Positions 6,161 through 58,713 of a stretch of DNA of 64,000 nt are shown here, in pieces. The stretch is from Cetorhinus maximus (taxonomy: Eukaryota), in assembly GCF_964194155.1 (NCBI RefSeq), contig NC_135916.1, positions 1,240,001 through 1,304,000 on the forward strand, read 5' to 3'. The stretch's first letter is position 1. Every line of letters starts with the position of its first letter. The notes under the pieces are model-generated. The model was not told where the DNA came from, searched no databases, and saw nothing but the letters and a program-made list of their open reading frames with translations. The position numbers and the translations under genes are program-made.

Positions 6161-6280
6161 ATTGGATAAATAAATGCGTTTATGGCAGGCAGGAGGTGGA
6201 GCTGGTTTACCAAAGACGTTAGTTGTGTCTGTCACTCAGTCTCTCCCGCCCCGCCTCTCTCTATCTCTCTCTCCCTTCCT

Positions 6281-6308
6281 CAGTCAGGTCGGGGCGGGCT
6301 GTATAAAA
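6281..6308 (+). promoter_or_regulatory. H4 promoter: site II-like element, GC box and TATA
   Basis: (T)CAGTCAGGTCGGGGCGGG followed by TATAAAA at 6302-6308. Equivalent elements occur before each H4 gene. Confidence 0.75.
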
Positions 6309-6355
6309 GCGGAACGTGAAGCCGCTCCCCACTCATTCAGCAGCGATTTGACTGA

Positions 6356-6676
<321 letters not shown>

Positions 6677-6709
6677 ACAAATCGACCCGACTCTCTAACA
6701 AAACCCAAA

Positions 6710-6725
6710 GGCTCTTCTAAGAGCC
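6710..6725 (+). terminator. Histone 3' stem-loop (H4)
   Basis: GGCTCT TCTA AGAGCC, followed by GCCCA and TTGAGAGCAG. Confidence 0.93.
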
Positions 6726-7779
6726 GCCCACAACCTCACATTGAGAGCAGTGACTTCTGAAGGGGGAGAGGGGAAAACAAATCTTTGTATTTTCTTATTA
6801 AGAGGCACTGCTTTGCCACCAATGCATCCTCTTTTCACAATACCATCGTGAGTCCCAAAAATACCTTGGTTTAATTTAGATCCGTTTTAACGAATTACCG
6901 TCCTTTCTACCCGAGGACCACGGCTCTACCCAATGTAATGTCGAATTTCATCAGGAGTAACTATTCTTAAACCTTTTATTCCCCCATCGACGCTCTAATT
7001 TTATTTTTTTTCCCCATCGGTTTCTGTTCCTGGGTCTTTGACGCATGACAGGACCTGGGAGGTACTAGCTTTATGTGGATCAGCCTGTATCGATTCAGCA
7101 TGTCTGAACAGAGCTTTATCCTGGCCTGCCTCTGAACAATCAGATAAAGAATCCGAATTCAAGACGGGTTATAAGGCAGACATTGACTGTCTCTTGCTGC
7201 CGATTATATTCAGAGCATATTTTACAGCCGGCGTGAATCAGACCAATATCGATTTACAGACTTGAAAAGTAAAACTACCCTTAATCACCTCTATTCTGCA
7301 ACACGGGCCGAACAGAAGGTTTGAACAGATAGATGTTTGATGGCCGCCCAGGACACGATGGACTTTTTCTATGTTGTACAACTTTATTACTCTATCAGAA
7401 GGGAAAACTCTGCTTTTGGCGCTCGGTTTGGACTATACTAAACATGCATTTCTGAATAATTGTGGAAGAGAGTTTGAATGAAAGTGGGGTATTGGATAAA
7501 TCCATTAAATTGAGGTCCGCCGGGCAACGGCACATGGTTGTGATGTACAGTCAAAGGCCAAATGTTATTCAAACCCAACAAATAATGAAGCCGGAATGAG
7601 AGAAGGATCCAATTTCCGCCAGCTCATTTCAGCTAATCCAATAATTAGAACATCAAAGTTCAACAATTTAAATTTCGACAGATACACGGTTTACATAAAC
7701 GGTCTGCAAGCCCCCCTCCCCCATAAAGACCCCACCGCGCACCCATTCACCAGCAGAAACAGGAACCATACCATTTTCT

Positions 7780-8166
7780 CTTAAACATCTATAACGCGTT
7801 GACATGAATAAACCGAGTCGGTTGATGAGGTTTCTGTGTGAGTGCCAAAATTTCCCCCATCAATAGGAGTTTTATTCCAGCCTGTTGCAAACCGATCAGG
7901 GAATGAATTAGAATTTAATCCGAGTTCCAAAGCAGGAAGTCGGAGCTGGGACCGAAATGGGACTTGCAAACATTGAGATATTATGATATTTCTACTTTGA
8001 GATTTATTTTATCTGCCTTCAAACTAGGTTTATTTCAATGTCAGTTACTCGTCACTCTGAAATTGGCGGGCATTTTGAAATTGATGAACTGTCAGTTGCT
8101 GCTCCACCAATCAGGGCCCAGGAATCCATGCAGCCCGCTGCTCTTTTCAAATTTCTCGGCGGGATT
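7780..8166 (+). pseudogene. Truncated H3 upstream/promoter region with no H3 CDS
   Basis: Homologous to 10630-11017 (includes the GGCGG-N4-TTTGAA element and distal CCAAT). It breaks at GGGATT, before the proximal CCAAT and TATA. Confidence 0.85.
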
Positions 8167-8176
8167 CCTTCTTATA

Positions 8177-8639
8177 AATCCTTCTTATCTCTAACACTGT
8201 AATGTTCGCTGTCGAAAATATTTCACGCGAATTGAAGACTCCCATTTCGATTTAAACCTGATTTACTGCGGCTCCTTCACCCGATCTCTGACATCTCCTC
8301 TACTCTTAGACTGAAATATCGAGAACAACAAAGAAATTGTCTTGAAATCTCACTTTGGGGTTAAGCTGGGGAGCAGGGGGTGTATTCCTTTGGAAAATAT
8401 TTTTATCTTACCCAAGCGGGGCTCGGAAATTTCCTGATCAGAGCGGACACACAAACACAGTTTCATTCCTCTGACTCGCCCGCCCACTTCAAACACTCTC
8501 TTACACAAAGTTCACATTTAGAGGTTCATTGGCAACAAGATGAACAATTGTGAATGTCTCGGTAGAGATTTCCTTCTCTTTTCGATCTTTGCTCCGGTTT
8601 CTATTTATTTGCTAACATTAAACACTCTGAGGCATTGGA
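8177..8639 (-). repeat. Inverted copy of the B-type H1 upstream region
   Basis: The reverse complement aligns to about 26062-26543, with a short internal deletion between GCT repeats near 8613. Confidence 0.9.
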
Positions 8640-8640
8640 T

Positions 8641-8725
8641 GAAGGGAAAGATCCCGAGCAAATTGTAAACCTCTAAACTCAAAGGTTCTTCTCAGAGCCA
8701 CCCACATTTCACATGAAAGAATTGA
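8641..8725 (+). pseudogene. Orphan H1 3' UTR with altered stem-loop; H1 CDS absent
   Basis: GAAGGGAAAGATCCCGAGCAAATTG matches the H1 3' UTR. Stem-loop GGTTCT TCTC AGAGCC at 8684-8699; HDE changed to GAAAGAATTG. Confidence 0.9.
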
Positions 8726-9470
8726 TGCCCTGATTATTTGATCCGTGTCTCGGAGCTGGGAGCTGATTTCAGATGGAAATGTTTCGTTTTCCTCCCACGT
8801 AAATCCTATTTTCCCGCTCACTCACTGACACACTCTCCACCCGTCCCCTCCCGCACTGTGCAATAAGACACAGGGATATCCGTACAGCTCCCTAACCGGG
8901 ATGTGTCCCAGTGCATTCAAAGTTTATCTTTTCTTTATTCACATTTTCAGGGTGAGAGTCTGCAATGGAGTAAAACCCCGCCTCACAACTAATACCCATA
9001 CCAGTATATTTTATCTTATTTTGTTGGATGAGGTGTCAGCGAATTTCTCAATCCCTTTTGGCGGTGTGGAGGGAAGGGTGAGGCGTGAGTCTAGAGATGT
9101 GTGAGTATAGAATTTTACAAGGATTGAAATAGAAGCAGGCATCTGACTCTTTATAGAAAGTGTAGTATTGAGGGGGGAATATTGCTGACAGTATTGATTT
9201 TAATACGATTTTCTAAATAGCTGGTTTATGATGTTGGCGTGTTTAAGTTACTTTAACAGCTTTCTGTTCAGCTCTCTTCAAAATTTGATAAATAAATGCG
9301 TTTTTGGCAGGCAGGAGGAGGAGCTGGTTTACCAAAGACGTTAGTTGTGTCTGTCACTCGGTCTCTTCGCCCCGCCTCTCTCTCTCTCCCTTCCTCAGTC
9401 AGGTCGGGGCGGGCTGTATAAAAGCGGAACGTGAAGCAGCTCCCCACTCATTCAGCAGCGATTTGACTGA

Positions 9471-9791
<321 letters not shown>

Positions 9792-9824
9792 ACAAATCGA
9801 CCCGACTCTATAACAAAACCCAAA

Positions 9825-9840
9825 GGCTCTTCTAAGAGCC
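9825..9840 (+). terminator. Histone 3' stem-loop (H4)
   Basis: GGCTCT TCTA AGAGCC. Confidence 0.93.
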
Positions 9841-10915
9841 GCCCACAACCTCACATTGAGAGCAGTGACCTCAGAGCAGGAGAGGAAAAGCGATATGTAG
9901 TTTTATATAAACACAGCGTTTCCATCTGCGCATTCTCCATTAACAATATAATCGTGAGTCACACAAAATTCATGGTTTAATTTAGTTCGGTTTTCAGGAA
10001 TTCGCTTCCTTTATACTTGCCGCATCTCGATTCAAAGCTTGACTGAGGAACACGACAGCTCCCAAACTAACACCGAGTTCACAAGATAAAGGCCATCATT
10101 TATTACACTTTAATCAGGAGTAACTATTTTGAGACATATCATTCTCGCTTCTTCGCCCCATTATCACCCTGTCTTCTTTCTTCGCCATCTGTTCCTGGGT
10201 CGTTGAGACATGACAGGGTCTGGGAGGTACCAGTATACCAGCTTTAAATGGATCAGCCTGTATCCATGCTGCATGTTGTCTGGTTCCGGGGAGCACTGAA
10301 CAGATTTATTCTGGCCTGTATCAGGGCGATCAATGAAATAACCCAAATTTAAACGGGAATGTAAGGCGAATATTGAGAGGCTGATTGAAAAATCTGACTA
10401 CACTTAATCACCTCGATTCTGCAACCCAGGACGGACTGAAGGGTGATGTGGAAGATCTGATTTTGGTGCATGGTTTGCACTGCGAAGATGCATTTACGCA
10501 CATTGTGGAAGATAGTTCAAATATGTAAACTTAGATATTAACTTGATTTACAGAAAGGGTGCGCAATCCGCCCACCCACATCGCCTCCCCCAGCCATAAA
10601 ACACTAGAAACAAGAGCCAAGCCATTCTCTCTATAACATCTATAGGGCTTTGACATGAATAAACCGATAAGGTTGATCAGTTTTATATGTGAGACCCAAA
10701 ATTCCGCCCATCAATAGGAGTTTTATTCCAGCCTGCTGTAAACCGATCAGGGAATGAATGAGAATTTAATCCACGTTCAAAAGCCGGAAGTCGGAGCTGG
10801 GACCGAAATGGGGCTCGCAAACATTGAGACCTTGTGATATTTGTCCATTCAGATTGATTTTATCTGCCTTCAAACTAGGTTTATTTTAATTTCAGTTTCT
10901 CGTCCCTCTGAAATT

Positions 10916-12046: not shown

Positions 12047-12490
<444 letters not shown>

Positions 12491-12494
12491 TCAG

Positions 12495-12685
12495 TTCTCT
12501 TATACCCTCAGGAGGAATGGTGGTGCGCTCAGAGCTGATTGGGCAATTATATTATAGCTCATAATATTCTTCATGTTACCAATTAGATTTCTGCCTGACT
12601 CACCAATGCGGGCAAGCAACGTATGAAGTCGGAAGTTAAGGGCGCCAAATCATCAGTTAAACAAACGATTATATATTTCAAACTG
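12495..12685. promoter_or_regulatory. H2A promoter region, possibly bidirectional
   Basis: Minus-strand TATAAG near 12501; ATTGG/CCAAT near 12538, 12579 and 12603; CGGAAGT near 12630; E2F site GGCGCCAAA 12641-12649; TTATATATTT near 12669. Confidence 0.7.
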
Positions 12686-13659
12686 GAAAAGACAGACAAA
12701 AAATTAATCGAAGGAAATATCGCACAGAAATCGTCTTAGCTAAACAAAGGACAATTCCTATACAAATCGTTCTAATGCTTAACATTAAAGCAGTTCTCTT
12801 ACAGAATGTTAGAAGGTTTCTCGCTCTCGTTTCCTCGTCTACAGTTTACCCGTAACTATCAGTTTCTGGTTTTACCTGTGGACAAGAGGACAATAAAGGA
12901 TCCAATTTACCAGAATCCAAACTTATGTTTTTTTCATGTTCGTGAGTGTCAAGAGCGGAGTGCACATTTTTTGGCGTAAATTTGCCAGTATTGAAACAGA
13001 GGCTTCCCACACCGCCAGGGCTGATACGGAATGAATTGATCAAATCAACTTTTATAATGCTGGGGAGGGATAGCATCTTTGAGGGTTCAAAGATAGACTC
13101 TGCTTGATTACATTTATACAACAAGGCAGGGTCTACCCTGAAGCAGCAAACATACATTGTATTCCAATCCAGCAATAAAAATGAAAATCCTCTGCAGGCT
13201 ATGTGATTCTGGGATTAAGCCTAATCATCATTATTTGTTACTTAAATGTAGTTTTCGCTCCCTGAAGCTTTTCTTCCGAAATTGACATCAACGATATATG
13301 TTTTTGTTTTTGTCTCTGTAACATTCAGTTTTAAGTCAGTTTGGATTTTATCTGGTGCATGTCAATCCCTGGAGAAAATTTTATATTTCATTCGACATAT
13401 ATTGCTGCCACCATAAGATTATGCTTCTATTCTCATTTTAATCCCGACATTATCTGTTAAACCCTGCTATGGGTGCATGGAATATCTGTCTGTTCATGAT
13501 AAATAAATGGGAACTTTAATCTGAAATGTATAATTTTCTAAAAAAATAAAGCAGCGTAAAAAACAGGGAATTACAGACTGATTAGCCACCATCAGTGGTA
13601 GACTTAATACGAGAGTCCACTCTGTGATAATAAGAGACTTTGAAAATGTCAAATGGATT

Positions 13660-14530
13660 GGAGAAAGATAGCATGCGTTTATGAAAGGGAAATCATGTTT
13701 GACAAACCTATTGTAGCTTTTTTGGGAATTAAATTGCAAAGTAGATAAGGGAAAACCAGATGATGTGGTCTATTTAGATTTTCAGAAAGCTTTTGTTAAA
13801 TGCCCACTTAACTGGTTTGTGTACCAAATTGAAGTGCATGGGATGGGGGTTTGGATTGGCATGTACTGAGAAAGGATTAGTAAACAGGATAAAGAGAGCA
13901 GGAATAAATCAGTCTTTTTGAGAATGGCAGAAGTTGACAAGTGGTGTGCCACAGGGATCAGTGTTTGGGTCCCAGTATTCAGAATAGACAAGAATGATTG
14001 TGATGAAGGAAGCAAAGATAATATTTCCAAGGTTGCTGATGACACAAATCTAGGAGGGAATGTGAGAGATGAGGAGGAAGTTAAAATTGCCCAAGGAGAT
14101 TTAGATAACTTGAGTGAGTGGGAAAAAAACATGGCAGATGGAGTATAAAGTGGCTAGATATGAATTCATCCACTTTGGTACGAAAAACAGAATGGCAGAG
14201 TATTATTTAAATAGTGATAGGTTGGGAAATGTTGATTTACGAAGAGACCTGCGTGCAGCACATGATCACCAGGCTGATTCATGGGCTGGCAGGATTGTCA
14301 CATGAGGGGAGAATGGGCCGATTCGGACTGTATACACTCAGTGATTGTAGAATGAGAGGGCAAGTATTTGAAATACATGAAATAGTGACAGCGCTGGTCA
14401 GGCTGGGTGCAGGGATGATGTTTCCTCTGGCTGAAAGGCCTAGCACATGTGTTCAATCTCAGGATACGTTGTAGTCCATTTCGGGCTGTGTTGAGGACAA
14501 AGTTGTTGACTCATAGGGTGGTGAACATGT
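13660..14530 (+). mobile_element. Old CR1 LINE RT fragment
   Basis: Translates to FMKGKSCLTNL, YLDFQKAF, ISKVADDTNLGG and WQME motifs with many disruptions. Confidence 0.85.
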
Positions 14531-15469
14531 GATTGAGTTGCATTCATTTTGTAACCTCCAGTATCTTGTATGTGAACGTATATATAATTCCCTCCATGTA
14601 TCCGTGATGTTTGCAAGAGTGGAACTAACTCTATTTTTAATATTTTAATGTGCTATCTCCAAAAGTGAGATTTCGTTCGAATCACTCAAAATCTGGAACC
14701 AAATGTGAAGTTCCAATTGATATTCATATAGTCAACTGCTACAAGTATGTTTTCCTTGTGTGTCGATTGGTGACATATTGCCTGACTGTAGATTTGGCCC
14801 TGTAACATTCGGATTTTCCTCATTGTTATGTTTTTAGTGTATGTTTGTGGTTTTATCCCTGTATTTCATTCACTGGTACTTTGCATCAGATGGGGATAAT
14901 TCATTGCTTCTCAGCGTCTTGTATAATCTGTGAGTTTGGCCATGGTTCTATAATTGTCAGTCTCTCAAACTGAATGTGAGTGTGTAATAATTCAGTCTTT
15001 AAGAGCAACGAGCTGACAATGAGTGTGTGATTCATTCCACTGAACTGTGCATCTGGTTTGTATGGGTATGTTCCACTCTCTGCATATCTCTCATTGTCCT
15101 TTACAGTGCATGATTTGGGGATTAAATTGAACATGACAGTTTCCAATAGACGATGTGATTGTGGGGTTATTTCTGTATTTTTATGGTTTCAGCTATTCTA
15201 TTTGAATGAGATCTTTTCTGCCTCATTCAGATTCAGGTAGTGTAGTGAGTGTGGGATTTATTATAAAGCTTTCAGACTTGGAAATTTGGGTGATTAACAT
15301 CTGCATCATGGATTTTTGCTCCCCAGGCACAGTGTATGTGGGGATAATTATGTAGTTGCCGTTCTCTGGTATGCTTTGAATTTATTTTTGTTCTTATAGC
15401 TGTATTTGATCTGTGTTTGAATGTGTGAGTAATTTTGCACCTGAGAATTCTGCCCATCTAAGTATATAC

Positions 15470-15682
15470 AACTTCTCTCTCCCCCCGCCCCCCCACCTTA
15501 AACCAGCTTATATTTCACCTTTCTCCTAACTATGCTTCAGTTCTGCCGAAGGGTCGTTATGACTCGAAACGTTAACTGATTTCTTCTCCACCGATGCTGC
15601 CAGACCTGCTGAGTTTTTCCAGGTAATTCTGTTTTTGTTTTGGATTTCCAGCATCCGCAGTAGCTTTTAGCTTTTTGTTTTT
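15470..15682 (+). mobile_element. Penelope 3'-terminal fragment
   Basis: Closely similar to 1480-1690 (CCACCTTAAACC...CAGCATCCGCAGTAGCTTTTAGC). Confidence 0.88.
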
Positions 15683-17572
15683 AAGTAGGTATATTATTCA
15701 ATCTGTATCTGTTTTTCTCCACTGTTGCAGGTAAGTGTGAGATAAGACTATATCTGGACTTTTAATGAAACGTGTTGGAATATATTTTTATGAATCCCTC
15801 AACATAGCAGTATTTGTTAACCTTTGGTTTAACCTATAACATTGGCTTCATGTGTTTTGTAGTCACAGGTTATATTCAATAGTTGCCTGGGATTTGTGGA
15901 ATCACATTTGATTTTTAGCTCTGTGAAAACAATTGTGAATATTTAATCAGATACACAGCCTCATATGTAATTTGTTCATTTTGTATAAAGGGATTGCTGT
16001 TGAATCTTTACTGATGCTGCCATTTTTGGTGTGAAATATATAGATATGTCTAAATTCTAAGGGACGGTGCTGCAATTTATTCTGTCCCTTCCAATCAGTT
16101 ATTTCTTGTCTAATGAGGCTCAGAATAATTAATTAATTTCTGACCAACGCAACACAATATAATTAAATCTGATATTTGGTGTGTTTTCTGTGAACATTTT
16201 GATTGATGTATGCTCCTCTCATCTAGGTTACTGGAAATAAAAACAAACAACAACAATAAAATCAGACTCTCCTGCTCAGTTTGTATCTTGCATTGAAAAG
16301 TTGTCACTTCCCTTTGAAACAGTGTGGGAATGAACAATTAATTGGTTGTGACTGTGGACATAATGACCTGGAAGTTTCTCTGCTCTCAGTGAATGGTCCT
16401 GTACCTAGCTAGTGTTGCAGCTAGCTCACTTTTTAACCTTGTTCATTTTGTGACTTTTGAAGTTGTCACTATTATCTACCTTTGTCACTAACATCATCAT
16501 GCAGCAGGAATACCCATAGCACAGCTTGTGAGCTAAGATTTGTTTGTCTCTTTTCATGTTGTACCTTTCAACCATTATTCATTCCTGATATTTCGACTGC
16601 AGATTGATTTATTAATTTGGAGGCCTGTACTATTATTTCAGTAATTTTTCCATGTAGAAATATGAAGGTGAGTTTCACTTTTGGAACACATGGATGAAAA
16701 TAGTATTTTGCCATTTTTATTTGAACAGTGATATCCTTCTTTGCTGGACCACTCCTCTGATTGCATTGACAATCACTGGGATGCATTTAAGTATTTTATT
16801 CTGTATCTATTGTTTTCTGAGATGAAAAGGTGAAAGCTTTGTAACTGTCAATCTTTAAGTCTCATAACAATGCACATGTCGAATTTTGTTTTGTCTGATT
16901 TTTCTCATAAATAGTTAAATGCCAGGTTTGTTGTCATCTAAGGCTGTGTTTCTGTCTCCATCTGCCAGTTTTTTTTATGAGTGTGAGTTTTAAACTGTCG
17001 GGTGTGCTTTCACATATGTGAGTATGATTTCCGTTTCTTAATCTGCTGCTGTATTTATCAGTTTCTGGGATTCTTAATGTGACTGTGACTCAGTAACTTT
17101 CAGGTTCTGGTAAGTGATTGCTGGTGTTAGAATGTCCATGTGAATGTCTTGTTGTTTTACTTTCTAGCACTTCCTTACTTGCTATTGAGCTTTTTTCCCT
17201 CAGTCTCTCCATTAGTTTGTGGCATGTGAATGTGAGTGCTATTCTGTATCTGTCAATAACTGCATTGTGAGCGTGAGTCATAATTGCAATTGCCAGTTTT
17301 AGGTATGTGTCTGGAATGCAAATGTGAATTTTACACTGCAGTTCTCACTTTTGAATGTCTGAATGTATGTTTGAGATTACTTCACTGACTTTGACAATGT
17401 AACTATGATTATTCTCAGTACATTTTCTATGAGTATAGCCTACATTCTTTATCTATTAGTGTCTTATCAGCAAATGTAAGACTTATTCAAAATCTGTCAG
17501 TATTATAGTATTGTCATTGTGCGATTGATGATGTGGCTGTGCATGCCTGCTTTTATCTGTGTTTGGGTCTGT

Positions 17573-17630
17573 GTGAGAGACAGAGAGAGAGAGCATGTCT
17601 GAAGATGTGTGTGTGTGTGTGTGTGTGTGT
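17573..17630. repeat. (GA)n/(TG)n microsatellite
   Basis: Direct inspection; one more TG unit in the copy at about 55345. Confidence 0.9.
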
Positions 17631-18231
17631 TCATGGTGTTTTTTTTGTGTTTTCGTTCCTTCTGTCTCTCTAATGTGTTTATGGACTTATCTTTTTATTT
17701 GTCATTGTTCAATATAGAAATGTGCATGTTGATTGGTACTCATAATTATCTGGCATGATGGCATGGATTCATTCTGTACATGTCCAATTCTTCCCTTTTC
17801 AATTTTGATAGTCTTGGCTGTAAGCAGTAACTGTTAGGTTTGGTGTATGTAAGTTTGCATTTTATCAGTAGTTGACCTTTTCAGATATGAGACTGCGGTA
17901 TTCAATCTACCCGCTCATTTCCAGTTTGTGTTGTGAGCATGTCTTTTACTTTGTTAAAGTGAACATGTAGTTTCTGAGACTCTGCATTTACAGTGAATCT
18001 GTTGTATGAATGCCGATTTTAGTCTGTACCAATTTGATTCAGTTTCTTGTTTTATTTTCGGTGCTCAAATCTCTGTTTTACAAGTGATATATTCCATTCT
18101 GCTTGTGTCAATTTTTGATGAACTGAACAATAGTTTTTGTGAGATTCTGTTGATATTTTGTGTCTGAATATGGGATTTCCTTTGTACATGTCAGATTTTA
18201 GCATGAAGGAATGTTTATCAACTGCAACTAA

Positions 18232-18460
18232 GCAAAGCCAAAATATTCTCGGCTGGATGTTGGAAACCTCAAAAAAAGGGAAGAAAATTGCTGAGAATAC
18301 TGAGCAGGATTGTCAACATCTGTGGAGAAAAAGCTGAACTGCCCGTTATCTGAAATTCCTGATGTGATGGAAGGTCATTTGCCTGTAATGTTCACCCTCA
18401 ATCTTTCTAAACAGTTGTTGCCGTCCCTGCTGAATATTTCCAGCATTGTCGGTGTTTTTT
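18232..18460. mobile_element. Ancient palindromic (Penelope-tail-derived, MITE-like) element
   Basis: GCTGAGAATACTGAGCAGG...CCTGCTGAATATTTCCAGC form imperfect inverted arms. Also present at the orthologous B position 36126-36362. Confidence 0.65.
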
Positions 18461-19306
18461 CCTCCCCCTGTCTGTGTTAATTCCCAGCTGGTAAATATCA
18501 CTCTGCACCTGACAGAGTCTGATACTTACATTTCACTTTTATTCTGACAGAATCTCCAAGTGCATTTTCCTCTGTGACTCTCATTTATGTGTGTGTCTGA
18601 ATCATTGTCGATTTTACGGTGAGCCTGTTAGCCGACAATATTTATGAATGATGGCCACCTTTCAGTTTTCCATTTAGTATGATAGCATGAACCTATTTTC
18701 CATGTCCCTCTCGGTTTATGGAATGGACTGATTTGTTTTGATCAGCAACTTAAAGTTTTTAATGCATGTTCATGTGTGTTTTTACAGTAGCCATCAAGAT
18801 CAGCGATGTGTGTAGCCATGCTTCTCCTATTTTGAAAAGGCTTATAGAAAATTTGGTTTTATTCTGCATCTCTATGTCCCTGGAATGTGTCTGTGGTTTT
18901 ACAATGTAATTGTCTGTCTCTGTTATGGGAATGCAGGATAGTTCCGTGTCGGTCAGACTCTCCTCTGAGAGTGGTGTTATGTTATTCCCTGCTTTGTGAG
19001 TTAAGTTTTAACCATTTTTTGTTTGTAGTGATCTGTCGAAGTGAGTGTTTGTGACAATATTCCTCTGGCATGTCTATGCACGCCTCCATTAACAAAAATA
19101 TACTCTATCTTGATTTCTGATATTGAATAAGATTTTTGGAATGGAATTTAACTTGTTGCTTTGCGAGAACTTTGCATGTATTCATGAATAATTCTGCAAA
19201 CATTAATTGTCTGATATTTAAGTTGTAGCTAATGATCTACTCTTGTGACATGAATGGACTGCCCTTCAATCTGATAATGTTTGCGATTTTGGACTGAAAT
19301 TGGTGC

Positions 19307-19799
19307 TGTTGTGCTTTCTTCTAAGAATCGAATACAGTGACAAAGATACAAGTTTAGGATTGTTTATTAAAGGGAACAACAGGGAGGGTCTGCTCCCTTT
19401 GAATGCCTAAAACAGAACTCTACTGATTACAGGATAACAATCTTTTTTAAACACTAAACCGTTCACGTACACATTACACTATTCTAATTCCAATCTTGGC
19501 AGTACATAATCACATGACAATCAGATGCCGCCAGTCCGCGGAACATACATTTACTTTCCCAAGCAGGGCCTCTTCATCTCGTTCTAGCCTGGCTCTATCC
19601 CTGATACTCTTTGTCATTACACTGATGTGTTTATCTTCATCCCTCTTCTATCTCCTAACCAGTTAATCCCTTATGATCCCAAAGGTCTCCCTAGAGAGAG
19701 CTGCTGATACCAGCCCTTATGGTGTACAAGTTTTCACTGGAGAATTTTGCTGACCTTTGGTTTCACTAAAAACATAGAAATCGCTGCTTACCTCTTACA
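19307..19799 (-). mobile_element. Solo LTR (493 bp)
   Basis: TG...CA termini; flanks GTGC/GTGG (imperfect 4-bp TSD); minus-strand AATAAA near its 3' end. Absent at the paralogous B site near 38705. Confidence 0.75.
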
Positions 19800-20570
19800 G
19801 TGGGTCTACCATTCAGCAGTACCGAGTAGCAGTGTTTTGTGGGGAATATAATTCAGTCTCCCCTGTGTGTTAGCCTACTGGATTGATCATGTGTATCAGG
19901 GTTTGAGTTCAATTCGAGTCTGACTATTTCTGCTCTGGGTGATGGTCACAGTGATGTTCTGTCTGTATCTGTGCACTCTTGGAGTAGGATCGTACCTGCT
20001 GCCAGTTAGAAGGAGATAGCTGCACCTCTGTGTTGGCTGGTGGAACTTGAGATTGAAACTGACCCCTTCATTAACCTGCCAGAGAGGAAGAAAGATATCT
20101 CCAGTAAGGCAAAATCAGCTGAGGTCAGTAAAAGGCAATAGATCAATGTAATATTTCAACTGATAATCAATTTCAAAAATACTGTACATATCATGGCGGA
20201 CAACGAAAAAACTACAGTGTCTGATTCCACTTCTAACTATTGAGTGAGATTCAGAAACAACCCGCATCTGCACTGCTCCAAGTGTGTCACTACGCGGGCC
20301 CAGAGATATTGGTACAGGACAGATTTCAATTTCCAGCTCCCTTTGTAAGAACCGCCAACTCAATCTAACTGTGGAAGGTACAATGTTTCTTTGAGACGCC
20401 TCAGCTGAACAGCTGGTGCCTGCAACACGTGTCGTTAACATTACTGCTCCACTCCTTACTCTCCGTCTGTTTCCACGATTCACTGTCCAAAAGCCAACAC
20501 GTTGTGTGAATCAGCAGCTAAACTTGGAATATGCATTACAGGATTGAGGGGGGATATCCCAATAGTTTTC

Positions 20571-20962
20571 AATTGCAGCTTGCTCAGGTTCTGTCTCCCT
20601 CAGCAGGGCCACACACAGCCCCAGAAAGGCCTCTCCCCGACCACCAGCTCACTCCAAGTTCCGGAACACGTTCCCGCTCCGCTCCGCCTCTTACAAACAG
20701 CCCCCCGGTTCCCCCTGAACTTACCCCGAGTCAATGATGATTTCTGTGCCCACACTGACAAACCGGTGCCCTGCTGGAATCAGAACGCTGTTTACTCGCT
20801 TACCCGGGCCCCAGTATTTCCATTTCCGTCTGTTTGAAACAAAGGTCTTCCGCTCGCTGAGTGAAAGGACGTCAAGGGCAGTGGTTGGTGGGAAGGGAAG
20901 CGCGCATGCGCCCGACTAGTCACCGAGAAATTCCAAAACGCAGGGCTGCAATGCGCATGTGC
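20571..20962 (-). promoter_or_regulatory. Conserved CpG-rich promoter/first-exon-like element (subunit A)
   Basis: NRF1 motifs GCGCATGCGC 20902-20911 and TGCGCATGTGC 20952-20962; minus-strand CCTTTCACTC start near 20868; donors GG|GTAAGC (20803) and GG|GTAAGT (20724). Very high identity to 39456-39842. Confidence 0.6.
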
Positions 20963-22322
20963 TGTTGGAAACTAACTAAGAACAAAACCAGGTCATCTGG
21001 TCCTTCCCCATGTCAATTTCCTCAGCCTTGAGCATAGGAATTGGAATGTGGGGAACGGGCAGAGACGTTACGAGCAGGAGGGCCATCCCTGTATTAAATC
21101 CAAACTGGGCGTCTTTGCTGTTCATTCGACGGTCTCCGCAAATTAATCCACATGTCGAATAGGTCTGTTTGCTGTTATAGCTCAGAACTTAATATCAGAT
21201 CGTAAAAGTCTCAGGTTAATATAATCAGATTGAAAATGTCAGTCACTGACTGTCGTATTCAACAATTTTAGTCGAAGATTTCCCGAGAGTTCCAGAGTTT
21301 ATAGAATGTTATATTTCATTATTATTGCCTCAACACCACTCAGTTTCCTGGACTGTGGGACAGAAATGTATCTGCCTCTCCTCCAATGTTAATGAGAGAT
21401 GAGGCCTGGTATTTCGCACCGCTGGGGGATCTATAAGCCTTATCGATCAGCTTCAGAATATTCAGTGTTTCAAAAAGAAAACCTCTCAATCTTCTAAACT
21501 CCAATGACGATTATTCCAACTTGATCATGATTTCCTCACCAGTCAACAACTGGAAGCTGCTCATGAACATTCCCTGAACTGTATCAAGGGATCGATATTA
21601 TTCAGTTGTCCCCCATCCCTCTACTGCTGTTGATGTGCATGTTACTAATGTTACTGATAGGATTATATAAACTGATACTCACACTCCTCCCATGTGAGGT
21701 GAGGGACTGTCACTGTTCATTCTCCTCTCAGAAATTCAAGTATGACATTTCATTAGATTATCTCCAGTCAAACATCGAATTCTGCTCTGAAAAACTCTGT
21801 CACTGTCGGGAACGTGACGATGGGAGAAGTCATCGCAGCCAACGCGACTCAGGAGGGAATCGAGGAGGACCCACTGTCAAAGAATGGAATAGTCCCAAGC
21901 ATTACATTGCTGTAGTGTTTCCATCCCTCCCTCATCCTCAAACCTAAAAAACAGAGAGAGGGGAAGAGGCAGTGTCTCCAGGAGTGCACCAAATCTGCGA
22001 GGGATACTCTTCTGAAAGTGGAATTTAAAGAAAAAGCAGCTGATTGCTGAGTAAATCCTGGGAGCAGACTCGGAGGGAGGAGAACCGAAGCGGTGAGTGT
22101 AAACCTAGCTTACCTTGAGGATTCGCAGTCTTGTCTCTAGGGAGCAGACTCGGAGGGAGGAGCAGCAGAGTGGTGACCTCGGGGCACAGAGTAACTGAAG
22201 CCAAAACTGAAAAAGTGACGTCACATGAAAGCTGTGACCTGATTGGTTGGTAGGAAATCTGCACCAAATTTGAAAAAAAAAACACGGCAAAGCTAATTAA
22301 TAAATTAATTGTCTAAGTACAG

Positions 22323-26756: not shown

Positions 26757-27413
26757 ATGACCGATACTGCAGCCGCCGAAACGGCTCCTCCAGCCGCTCC
26801 CGCCGCCCAGGTCAAGACTCCCAAGAAGAAGAAGAAGGCGGCTCCCCGGAGCAGTGCAGCCGGTCCCAAGCTGGGCGAGCAGATCCTCAAGGTTGTGGCG
26901 GATTGCAGCGATCGCAAGGGGATGTCGCTGCCCGCGATCAAGAAGGCGCTGCGCGGCAATGGGGTGGATGTGGAGAAACTCGGCTCCCAGATCAAGCAAA
27001 GCATCAAGAGGAATGTGAAGAATGGCTTCCTGGTTCAGGTCAAGGGCACGGGCGCCTCGGGCTCCTTCAAAGTCCCTAAGAACCCAACCCCGGGGAAAGT
27101 GGGAAAGAAGGCGAAGGCAGCAGCTGGCAAGAAATCTCCAGTGAAGAAAGCGGCAGCCAAGAAGGTGACAGCAAAGAAAGCAACGGCCAAGAAGACTCCA
27201 GTCAAGAAAGCAACGGCCAAGAAATCTCCAGTCAAGAAAGCAGCGGCCAAGAAATCCCCAGCGAAGAAAGCAGCGGCCAAGAAAACAGCCAAGAAGGCGG
27301 CAACTCCCAAAAAGCCGGTGAAGAAAGCAGCCCCCAAGAAAAAGTCTCCGGCCAAGAAGGTGACGGGCGTCAAAAAAGTGGCGATAGGGAGGGCCAAGCC
27401 CAAAACGAGATAA
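26757..27413 (+). CDS. H1: Histone H1, 218 aa (subunit B variant)
   Basis: Same as 4553..5209 apart from a few substitutions; stem-loop 27471-27486. Confidence 0.97.
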   Translation: MTDTAAAETAPPAAPAAQVKTPKKKKKAAPRSSAAGPKLGEQILKVVADCSDRKGMSLPAIKKALRGNGVDVEKLGSQIKQSIKRNVKNGFLVQVKGTGASGSFKVPKNPTPGKVGKKAKAAAGKKSPVKKAAAKKVTAKKATAKKTPVKKATAKKSPVKKAAAKKSPAKKAAAKKTAKKAATPKKPVKKAAPKKKSPAKKVTGVKKVAIGRAKPKTR

Positions 27414-39455: not shown

Positions 39456-39842
39456 AATTGCAGCTTCCTCAGGTTCTGTCTCCCTCAGCAGGGCCACACA
39501 CAGCCCCAGAAAGGCCTCTCCCCGACCACCCGCTCACTCCAAGTTCCGGAACACGTTCGCGCTCCGCTCCGCCTCTTACAAACAGCCCCCGGTTCCCCCT
39601 GAACTTACCCCGAGTCAATGATGATTTCTGTGTCCACACTGACAAACCGGGGCCCTGCTGGAATCAGAACGCTGTTTACTCGCTTACCCGGGCCCTAAGA
39701 TTTCCATTTCTATCTGTTTGAAACAAAGGTCTCCCGTTCACTGAGTGAAAGGCCCTCAAAGGTCAATTCTTGGGAGAAATGAGGGGCGCATGCGCTCTTC
39801 TAGCCATGTCTGAGAAAACTGAGGGCAGCAATGCGCATGCGC
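39456..39842 (-). promoter_or_regulatory. Conserved CpG-rich promoter/first-exon-like element (subunit B)
   Basis: NRF1 motifs at 39786-39795 and 39832-39842; both GTAAG donors and the MEILGPG micro-ORF (39684-39707) retained. Confidence 0.6.
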
Positions 39843-58321: not shown

Positions 58322-58713
58322 AATTGCAGCTTGCTCAGGTTCTGTCTCCCTCAGCAGGGCCACACACAGCCCCAGAAAGGCCTCTCCCCGACCACCAGCT
58401 CACTCCAAGTTCCGGAACACGTTCCCGCTCCGCTCCGCCTCTTACAAACAGCCCCCCGGTTCCCCCTGAACTTACCCCGAGTCAATGATGATTTCTGTGC
58501 CCACACTGACAAACCGGTGCCCTGCTGGAATCAGAACGCTGTTTACTCGCTTACCCGGGCCCCAGTATTTCCATTTCCGTCTGTTTGAAACAAAGGTCTT
58601 CCGCTCGCTGAGTGAAAGGACGTCAAGGGCAGTGGTTGGTGGGAAGGGAAGCGCGCATGCGCCCGACTAGTCACCGAGAAATTCCAAAACGCAGGGCTGC
58701 AATGCGCATGTGC
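58322..58713 (-). promoter_or_regulatory. Conserved promoter/first-exon-like element (second A copy)
   Basis: Same sequence as 20571-20962; micro-ORF at 58551-58574. Confidence 0.6.

Follow-up and report, generated by a model that had tools for sequence, protein, structure and literature searches.

An apparent multicopy lncRNA-type gene family in the histone clusters of Cetorhinus maximus

Why should a stretch of non-coding DNA, repeated among histone genes, be nearly as alike from copy to copy as those genes are, when the spacers around it are diverged, and what might it do there? The question arises from a window of 64,000 nucleotides of the Cetorhinus maximus genome (positions 1240001-1304000 of contig NC_135916.1, hereafter C39; "the window" means this whole stretch, and base-pair coordinates below refer to it), in which alternating units of about 19-22 kb carry the gene set H1, H4 and H3, plus H2A in A units. 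The first-pass annotation had proposed that a spliced non-histone transcript on the minus strand, or else a locus-organising element, is co-amplified with these genes and points into a repeat array and H2A (Table 1). A spliced transcription unit of this kind is supported by 45 copies of the module, by an intron-less contig and by the retention of its splice sites, and the module apparently represents a real, so far undescribed family of lncRNA-type genes that occurs in many copies within histone clusters. It bears on how vertebrate histone clusters are marked as one regulated domain, for which a module repeated in two clusters is a concrete candidate, either as a DNA element or as an RNA.

Table 1. 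Features of the module and its neighbours in the window, in order of position.
Feature	Position	Strand	Remarks
H2A	12050..12439	-	own promoter; downstream of the ~41-bp array, same strand
Degenerate repeat array, units of ~41 bp (~46 bp in the ancestral state)	14000..19970	-	interrupted by LINE/SINE pieces
Exon 2 (X1 contig: 694 nt or longer)	19382..20075	-	predicted only: an 80-nt form with its donor at 19995
Intron 1, 728 nt, GT...AG	20076..20803	-	missing from X1 record 2, length exact
Homogenised core	20571..20810	-	G-skew 0.43 over 20571-20724; RNA fold ordinary
Exon 1 extension to donor 2, predicted	20725..20803	-	GT at 20724 in 45/45 copies
Exon 1, short form	20804..20868	-	donor 1 GT at 20803 in 43/45 copies
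Likely start region	20850..20881	-	TTCACTCAG motif kept in both histone clusters; spliced X1 contig ends at 20881
Proximal NRF1-type palindrome GCGCATGCGC	20902..20911	-	perfect; putative site
Distal NRF1-type palindrome	20953..20962	-	one mismatch in this copy; putative site
H1 of next block	26760..27410	+	head-to-head with the module, LINE in between
Module, B-subfamily copy	39456..39842	-	
Module, second A-subfamily copy	58322..58713	-	

We searched 1.06 Mb of C39 (930-1,994 kb) for copies of the module and found 45, one per unit, between 981 and 1,922 kb, in a single histone array of 0.95 Mb. These copies fall into subfamilies A (13 copies), B (16), C (15) and D (1). H1 is head-to-head with the module, at a distance of 1.9-6.4 kb, in 40 of the 45, and three units that have no histone gene retain both the module and the repeat array. 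The tandem units, at 960-1,935 kb of C39, contain H1, H4, H3 and H2A without H2B, which occurs three times in the 1.06 Mb, always outside these units. A piece of the window (12968-13041) matches the spacer between H2B and H2A in a second histone cluster, on contig C32, suggesting that the ancestral histone unit lost H2B by deletion. Rearrangements were also observed. H4 is duplicated in the first A unit of the window (6161-10016), with an inverted piece from upstream of H1 between the two copies. At 1,655-1,700 kb of C39 the orientation of the array flips across a 40-kb gap containing tRNA-Gly, one H2B and diverged module remnants, and the arms form a large inverted repeat.

Counts over the whole 3.99-Gb genome placed the module in histone clusters. 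A 28-nt donor motif had 44 matches, all of them inside the C39 array, and none for the reversed control; a promoter-plus-start pattern had 121 matches (control 0), and the 100 listed were distributed over C32 (83) and C39 (17). An exact 21-mer from the array matched 56 times, 54 of them on C32 and two on small contigs that also carry the module. The first-pass annotation would have fallen had the element proved to be a dispersed transposon, and here it stands, since every donor-motif match lies in the C39 array and every listed promoter match in one of the two clusters.

The second cluster was located by a search for H4, which placed it at 8.7-21.3 Mb of C32 (best 150 of 663 candidates scored); it spans about 13 Mb (8.7-21.5 Mb). 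The matches listed include no fewer than about 110 perfect H4 genes, intermixed with tRNA and C2H2 zinc-finger genes, and in most of the sampled blocks H2B and H2A are in tandem on one strand, not divergent. A stretch sampled from this cluster contains a distant module with a matching start motif and conserved blocks. When this C32 module was used as query (best 40 of 178 candidates scored), 36 copies were on C32 and four on small contigs. At least 22 of the 36 have H4 head-to-head at 600-618 bp, as judged against 23 H4 rows chosen by eye from the 150 listed. Across seven sampled C32 stretches, a same-strand array follows each of the eight strong promoter hits, which face H4 in four cases (in stretches picked for that), H1 in two, and neither in the remaining two. 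A same-strand array also ends within 2.5 kb upstream of eight out of ten C32 H2B genes; for the other two it is 8 kb off in one and unjudgeable in one. The top 20 C32 copies, selected for likeness over much of the stretch concerned, are almost invariant for about 500 nt past the start. By sequence comparison, then, the module is one member of a family common to two histone clusters, with copies numbering well over 100. A metagenome scan for relatives of the module in other species gave 0 matches. At about 12,199.8-12,201.2 kb of C32 we also observed a separate tandem array of 34-bp repeats, with about 42 copies, beside another NRF1 pair.

Both clusters also contain a young, poly(A)-tailed LINE that sits at the first codons of histone genes and has the orientation of the gene. 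Among 16 blast rows it was found at three H2A sites (a tandem pair with target duplications among them), at one H3 site and at two H2B sites, in places that include about 1,472.3-1,473.8 kb and 1,904.4 kb of C39 and about 13,175 kb of C32. Its 3' ends are 87-98% alike and it has a reverse-transcriptase-like frame, and it is possibly a site-preferring L1/Tx1-like family; our literature search found nothing on a LINE preferring the first codons of histone genes.

The putative promoter of the module was described in the first-pass annotation as having two NRF1 palindromes kept in A and B. We found them in both: the sequence GCGCATGCGC, well established as an NRF1 recognition palindrome, is perfect at 20902 and has one mismatch at 20953, and the two B sites (39786 and 39833) are perfect. 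The spacing of 51 bp between the distal and the proximal site is identical in the C32 relative. The pyrimidine start region is also where it had been placed. Its pyrimidine-start motif is present in A and B and different in C, D and C32 (contigs cannot reveal a start), the start sequence of the C32 family being TCATTCAC. Seven B-type modules (at about 1,022, 1,141, 1,438, 1,540, 1,578, 1,645 and 1,738 kb of C39) are missing about 43 nt, the start motif included, from the interval that separates exon 1 from the proximal NRF1 site, and constitute natural start-less controls.

We compared contigs from four sequencing runs with positions 18700-21300 of the window. One run, X1, comes from another organism and is RNA by guess only. 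Its cover stops at 20881, but run X2, which is DNA-like, also thins there, so that this end need not mark the start; run X3, which is not counted as evidence, has zero cover upstream of 20874. Record 2 of X1 is a 772-nt contig made of two blocks, 20806-20881 and 19382-20073, joined by four letters. Splicing from 20804 to 20075 predicts exactly four letters at this joint, and the length fits; the window has another letter at three of these four places, and the lone D copy shares the first two letters of the contig. A spliced non-histone transcript is therefore likely to be made from the module, as seen in this single contig with its GT-AG intron removed, as in a spliced lncRNA, in a run from another organism that is RNA by guess. 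A further X1 contig (20738-20841) runs across donor 1, which fits the use of donor 2; no donor 2 junction was among the contigs listed. The X1 joint between 19305 and 19982 was ruled out as a splice, as it coincides with a genomic gap of B-type units, and run X6 gave a single 175-nt contig inside exon 2, not counted as evidence.

The positions given earlier for both donors (GT at 20803 and 20724), for the acceptor (AG ending at 20076) and for the exon-2 donor (19995) all proved correct. The splice sites of this second exon had been described as altered in B, which is right for the exon-2 donor, GC in the B copy of the window, and wrong for the acceptor, whose AG is intact 4 nt upstream. Across the 45 copies the exon-2 donor is GT in 39 and GC in six, and an acceptor was found in all 14 copies displayed. 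B, C and D use the AG located 4 nt upstream; A is without that AG and has a new one, a compensating shift of 4 nt. The upstream AG is the ancestral acceptor, which A lost, gaining its own. Splice sites thus persist across subfamilies diverged by 25-30%, and are retained although exon-2 DNA differs by 24% between subfamilies, which lends splicing a support that does not depend on the contig. The C32 relatives have no GT at either of the C39 donors, and have donor-like and acceptor-like sites elsewhere (by eye).

The "40-bp array" of the first-pass annotation is real and strand-specific, its units recurring every 40-41 (and 45-46) bp, but it is highly degenerate. In five C39 units a weight matrix detected 55, 68, 114, 113 and 82 repeats on the transcript strand, against a background of 3-5 on the opposite strand and 6-30 in simulated sequence. 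Spacings are 40-44 bp in 125 of 427 cases on C39, and peak at 46 and 41 bp on C32; array lengths vary twofold. When the hits were called in the other subfamily, the rate of change was 5.7% in the core of the array motif and 6.9% in the rest (nominal p 0.03, from non-independent pairs), so that constraint on the motif is slight at best. The array showed no mutation asymmetry of the type left by transcription, with A>G at 0.034 and T>C at 0.043 (p 0.13). We rejected the array as a decayed zinc-finger gene, its antisense likeness to the neighbouring zinc-finger gene being only marginal (reached by 3.5% of 200 shuffles, with two orientations tried).

The near-identity of the stretch 20571-20810 to its B copy, first judged by eye amid diverged spacers, was borne out by a sliding-window check: 5 of 239 aligned bases differ, with one additional gap column, and the 240-bp identity of the whole B unit to A exceeds 0.83 only at H1, H4 and H3 (0.97-1.00) and at the module (0.96), which is the sole non-histone peak. 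Core identity is 96-97% within C39, versus 67% to C32. We then compared polymorphism among 44 A, B and C copies, with the core represented by 20571-20724. Over its 153 sites there are no fixed differences between subfamilies and nine shared polymorphisms, with divergence of 0.032 within and 0.038 between subfamilies. The distal intron (323 sites) has 98 fixed differences and five shared polymorphisms (0.044 within, 0.269 between), and exon 2 (264 sites) has 72 and one. The core therefore mutates at about the rate of its flanks (within-subfamily diversity 0.032 vs 0.036-0.044), yet its variants are shuffled across subfamilies, which is a signature of gene conversion, and by these sequence counts conversion is likely what keeps the core near-identical. 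Four-fold sites of the histone genes are also mixed across subfamilies (1.0-1.9% both within and between classes). As in macrosatellites and other cases of concerted evolution, copies are closer within than between arrays and variants are common to subfamilies. The first-pass annotation had called the module hyper-conserved, but extreme purifying selection is unsupported as the cause of its near-identity, given a conversion pattern like that of histone silent sites, though constraint does exist at the level of motifs.

Conversion is nevertheless not the whole story. Between the C39 module and its C32 relative the core is alike at 93 of 139 positions (67%), the distal intron at 202 of 363 and exon 2 at 83 of 157 (53-56%), and since the core is the best kept part between clusters, selection contributes. 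The X1 contig over 20493-20745 differs from the window at 25 of 253 positions, and those elsewhere differ at 50 of 494 positions and at 63 of 692. This would agree with conversion, but the comparison is ambiguous, since 78 bases of the first contig lie outside the core and it has no assigned subfamily. Core changes number 7-15 in the seven start-less copies versus 1-9 (median 3) in the 37 others, in few and non-independent lineages. The locus is a natural case of patchy concerted evolution, with a non-coding island of 240 bp homogenised like a histone gene within units diverged by 25-30%, and it warns against taking identity between paralogues as a sign of selection.

What kind of gene might this be? 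A protein-coding gene was rejected, as no reading frame is common to the subfamilies: the first frames of the spliced A, B and C models have 7-29 codons, and the longest non-histone frames, of 58-116 codons, lie in unrelated places; two frames over the module had no match in Pfam. A structured RNA was rejected as well, the fold being no more stable than that of shuffled sequences (z -0.06 and +0.80 for the core, and -1.0 to +1.1 for 14 windows of both families). The module was also rejected as the promoter of H2B or H2A, as both genes have CCAAT/TATA promoters of their own (by eye). The pyrimidine-rich start, the short exons and upstream frames of just 7-29 codons on C39 recall the TOP-type snoRNA host gene at which the first-pass annotation had hinted. 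However, Rfam at gathering thresholds found only histone stem-loops in the window, and E-value scans of 12600-21400 and of four C32 loci found no snoRNA, although an undescribed family would escape such scans; the fold z-scores say the same. The introns thus have no Rfam match, the sister family has TCATTCAC at its start, and the spliced contig extends upstream beyond the start that had been proposed, to 20881. Such a host gene, or else a transposable element, whose dispersed copies are absent among the matches listed, is a reading to which we give almost no credence.

We propose, as a reading that falls a little short of an even chance, that the module comprises a promoter driven by NRF1, together with the first exon and intron of a non-coding spliced RNA gene, which is converted and acts in cis on histone chromatin. 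It presumes that NRF1 binds, that the spliced contig is RNA, that conversion is the cause of near-identity and that the function is exerted in cis. NRF1 would drive transcription from the module independently of the cell cycle, and the transcript would run into several kb of decayed 41-46-bp repeats. The open 5' end would be converted together with the histone genes, perhaps aided by R-loops or breaks, which can seed conversion at an open, G-skewed 5' end. Because the histone genes have CCAAT/TATA promoters of their own, the module would be their always-on neighbour, head-to-head with H1 or H4, and not their promoter; it is close to an even question whether this promoter and its transcription hold the neighbouring histone blocks accessible. 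Against this reading are the three C39 units that keep module and array with no histone gene, an array motif barely better conserved than the rest of the unit, the lack of transcription-type mutation asymmetry in the array, and the absence of GT from both C39 donor positions in the C32 relatives. The module may, instead, be a passenger, that is, an old promoter and a decayed minisatellite trapped early in the histone repeat, then co-amplified and converted without any function. The diversity of the core is near that of its flanks, the array decays almost neutrally and spreads twofold in length, and X1 divergence over the core region is similar to that elsewhere, all of which a passenger would explain; it would not explain why the NRF1 pair, the start motif and several blocks survive between clusters whose surrounding DNA is about 50% alike, why the shifted acceptor of A was compensated, why every copy has GT or GC at the exon-2 donor within DNA diverged by 24%, or why nearly every C39 unit retains the module. 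We consider a passenger unlikely, though well worth keeping in mind.

The working part could also be the RNA itself. It would then be an architectural RNA rich in repeats, binding proteins through its 55-114 A/C-rich units and serving to seed or sustain the histone locus body. An array on the same strand after every strong promoter hit (8/8 on C32, and 5/5 C39 units tested), a unit length that has stayed 41 or 46 bp through heavy decay, splice sites that are kept, and listed matches confined to histone clusters would all agree with this, but the units are very degenerate, with a motif hardly more conserved than the linker, and the spliced contig extends only to 19382, so that we regard the idea as rather improbable. 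At its boldest, and with as little confidence, histone locus bodies would be built on a dedicated multicopy lncRNA, with hundreds of NRF1-driven spliced transcripts, each with 50-110 protein-binding repeats, placed head-to-head with H1 or H4 and evolving in concert with the histone genes; if true, this would be the RNA seed hitherto missing for vertebrate histone locus bodies. Less probable still is a small-RNA precursor, in which an NRF1-driven germline transcript would be processed into piRNAs, which might be antisense to zinc-finger genes and transposons in the clusters. NRF1 is a germ-cell factor, the unit is long, non-coding and contains LINE/SINE pieces, and the array stretch has the weak antisense likeness to the zinc-finger gene described above; yet that likeness is marginal after two orientations, and germline mutation asymmetry is lacking.

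Our literature search found no description of this module family, although supplements and database annotations may name these loci. Several known systems share parts of its arrangement. In newt histone clusters, the satellite 1 spacers are transcribed on lampbrush loops by read-through from histone promoters. There, as here, repeated DNA lies between histone blocks and is transcribed, which at our locus is a prediction; unlike in newts, the array here comes with a predicted promoter and splice sites of its own, and would be read in the direction of the histone block. The GAS5/SNHG snoRNA hosts have a TATA-less promoter, a pyrimidine-rich TOP start, short exons and no long frame, but the module differs in that its introns have no detected snoRNA, it is multicopy and a repeat array follows it. 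Genes for 5S rRNA are linked to histone repeats in some genomes. Like the module, 5S and tRNA genes are non-histone genes co-amplified with histones, and the C32 cluster also carries tRNAs; they are, however, short Pol III genes, whereas the module resembles a spliced Pol II gene.

Co-clustering of tRNA and histone genes is described for a ray in the accessible part of one report (10.1101/2025.06.08.657570), and this and another elasmobranch genome paper (PMC11979771) mention histone clusters but not, in their accessible parts, the module. In Drosophila, according to the portion of the source at hand, the GA repeats of the H3-H4 promoter are bound by CLAMP, giving one cis element per histone repeat, for which a role in opening chromatin and in nucleating the histone locus body was proposed (PMC5588930). 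The CLAMP element lies within a histone promoter and involves no separate RNA, as far as that portion goes, and its likeness to the module is one of arrangement, no likeness in sequence being claimed. The macrosatellites DXZ4 and D4Z4 and the RNU2 array, as presented in the accessible part of PMC5687341, have internal promoters and lncRNAs and resemble our locus in their multi-kb tandem units, a CpG-rich promoter per unit, long non-coding transcripts and concerted evolution. Unlike in macrosatellites, the unit here includes replication-type histone genes, the modelled RNA is spliced and enters a 41-46-bp minisatellite, and homogenisation is restricted to the genes and to one island of 240 bp.
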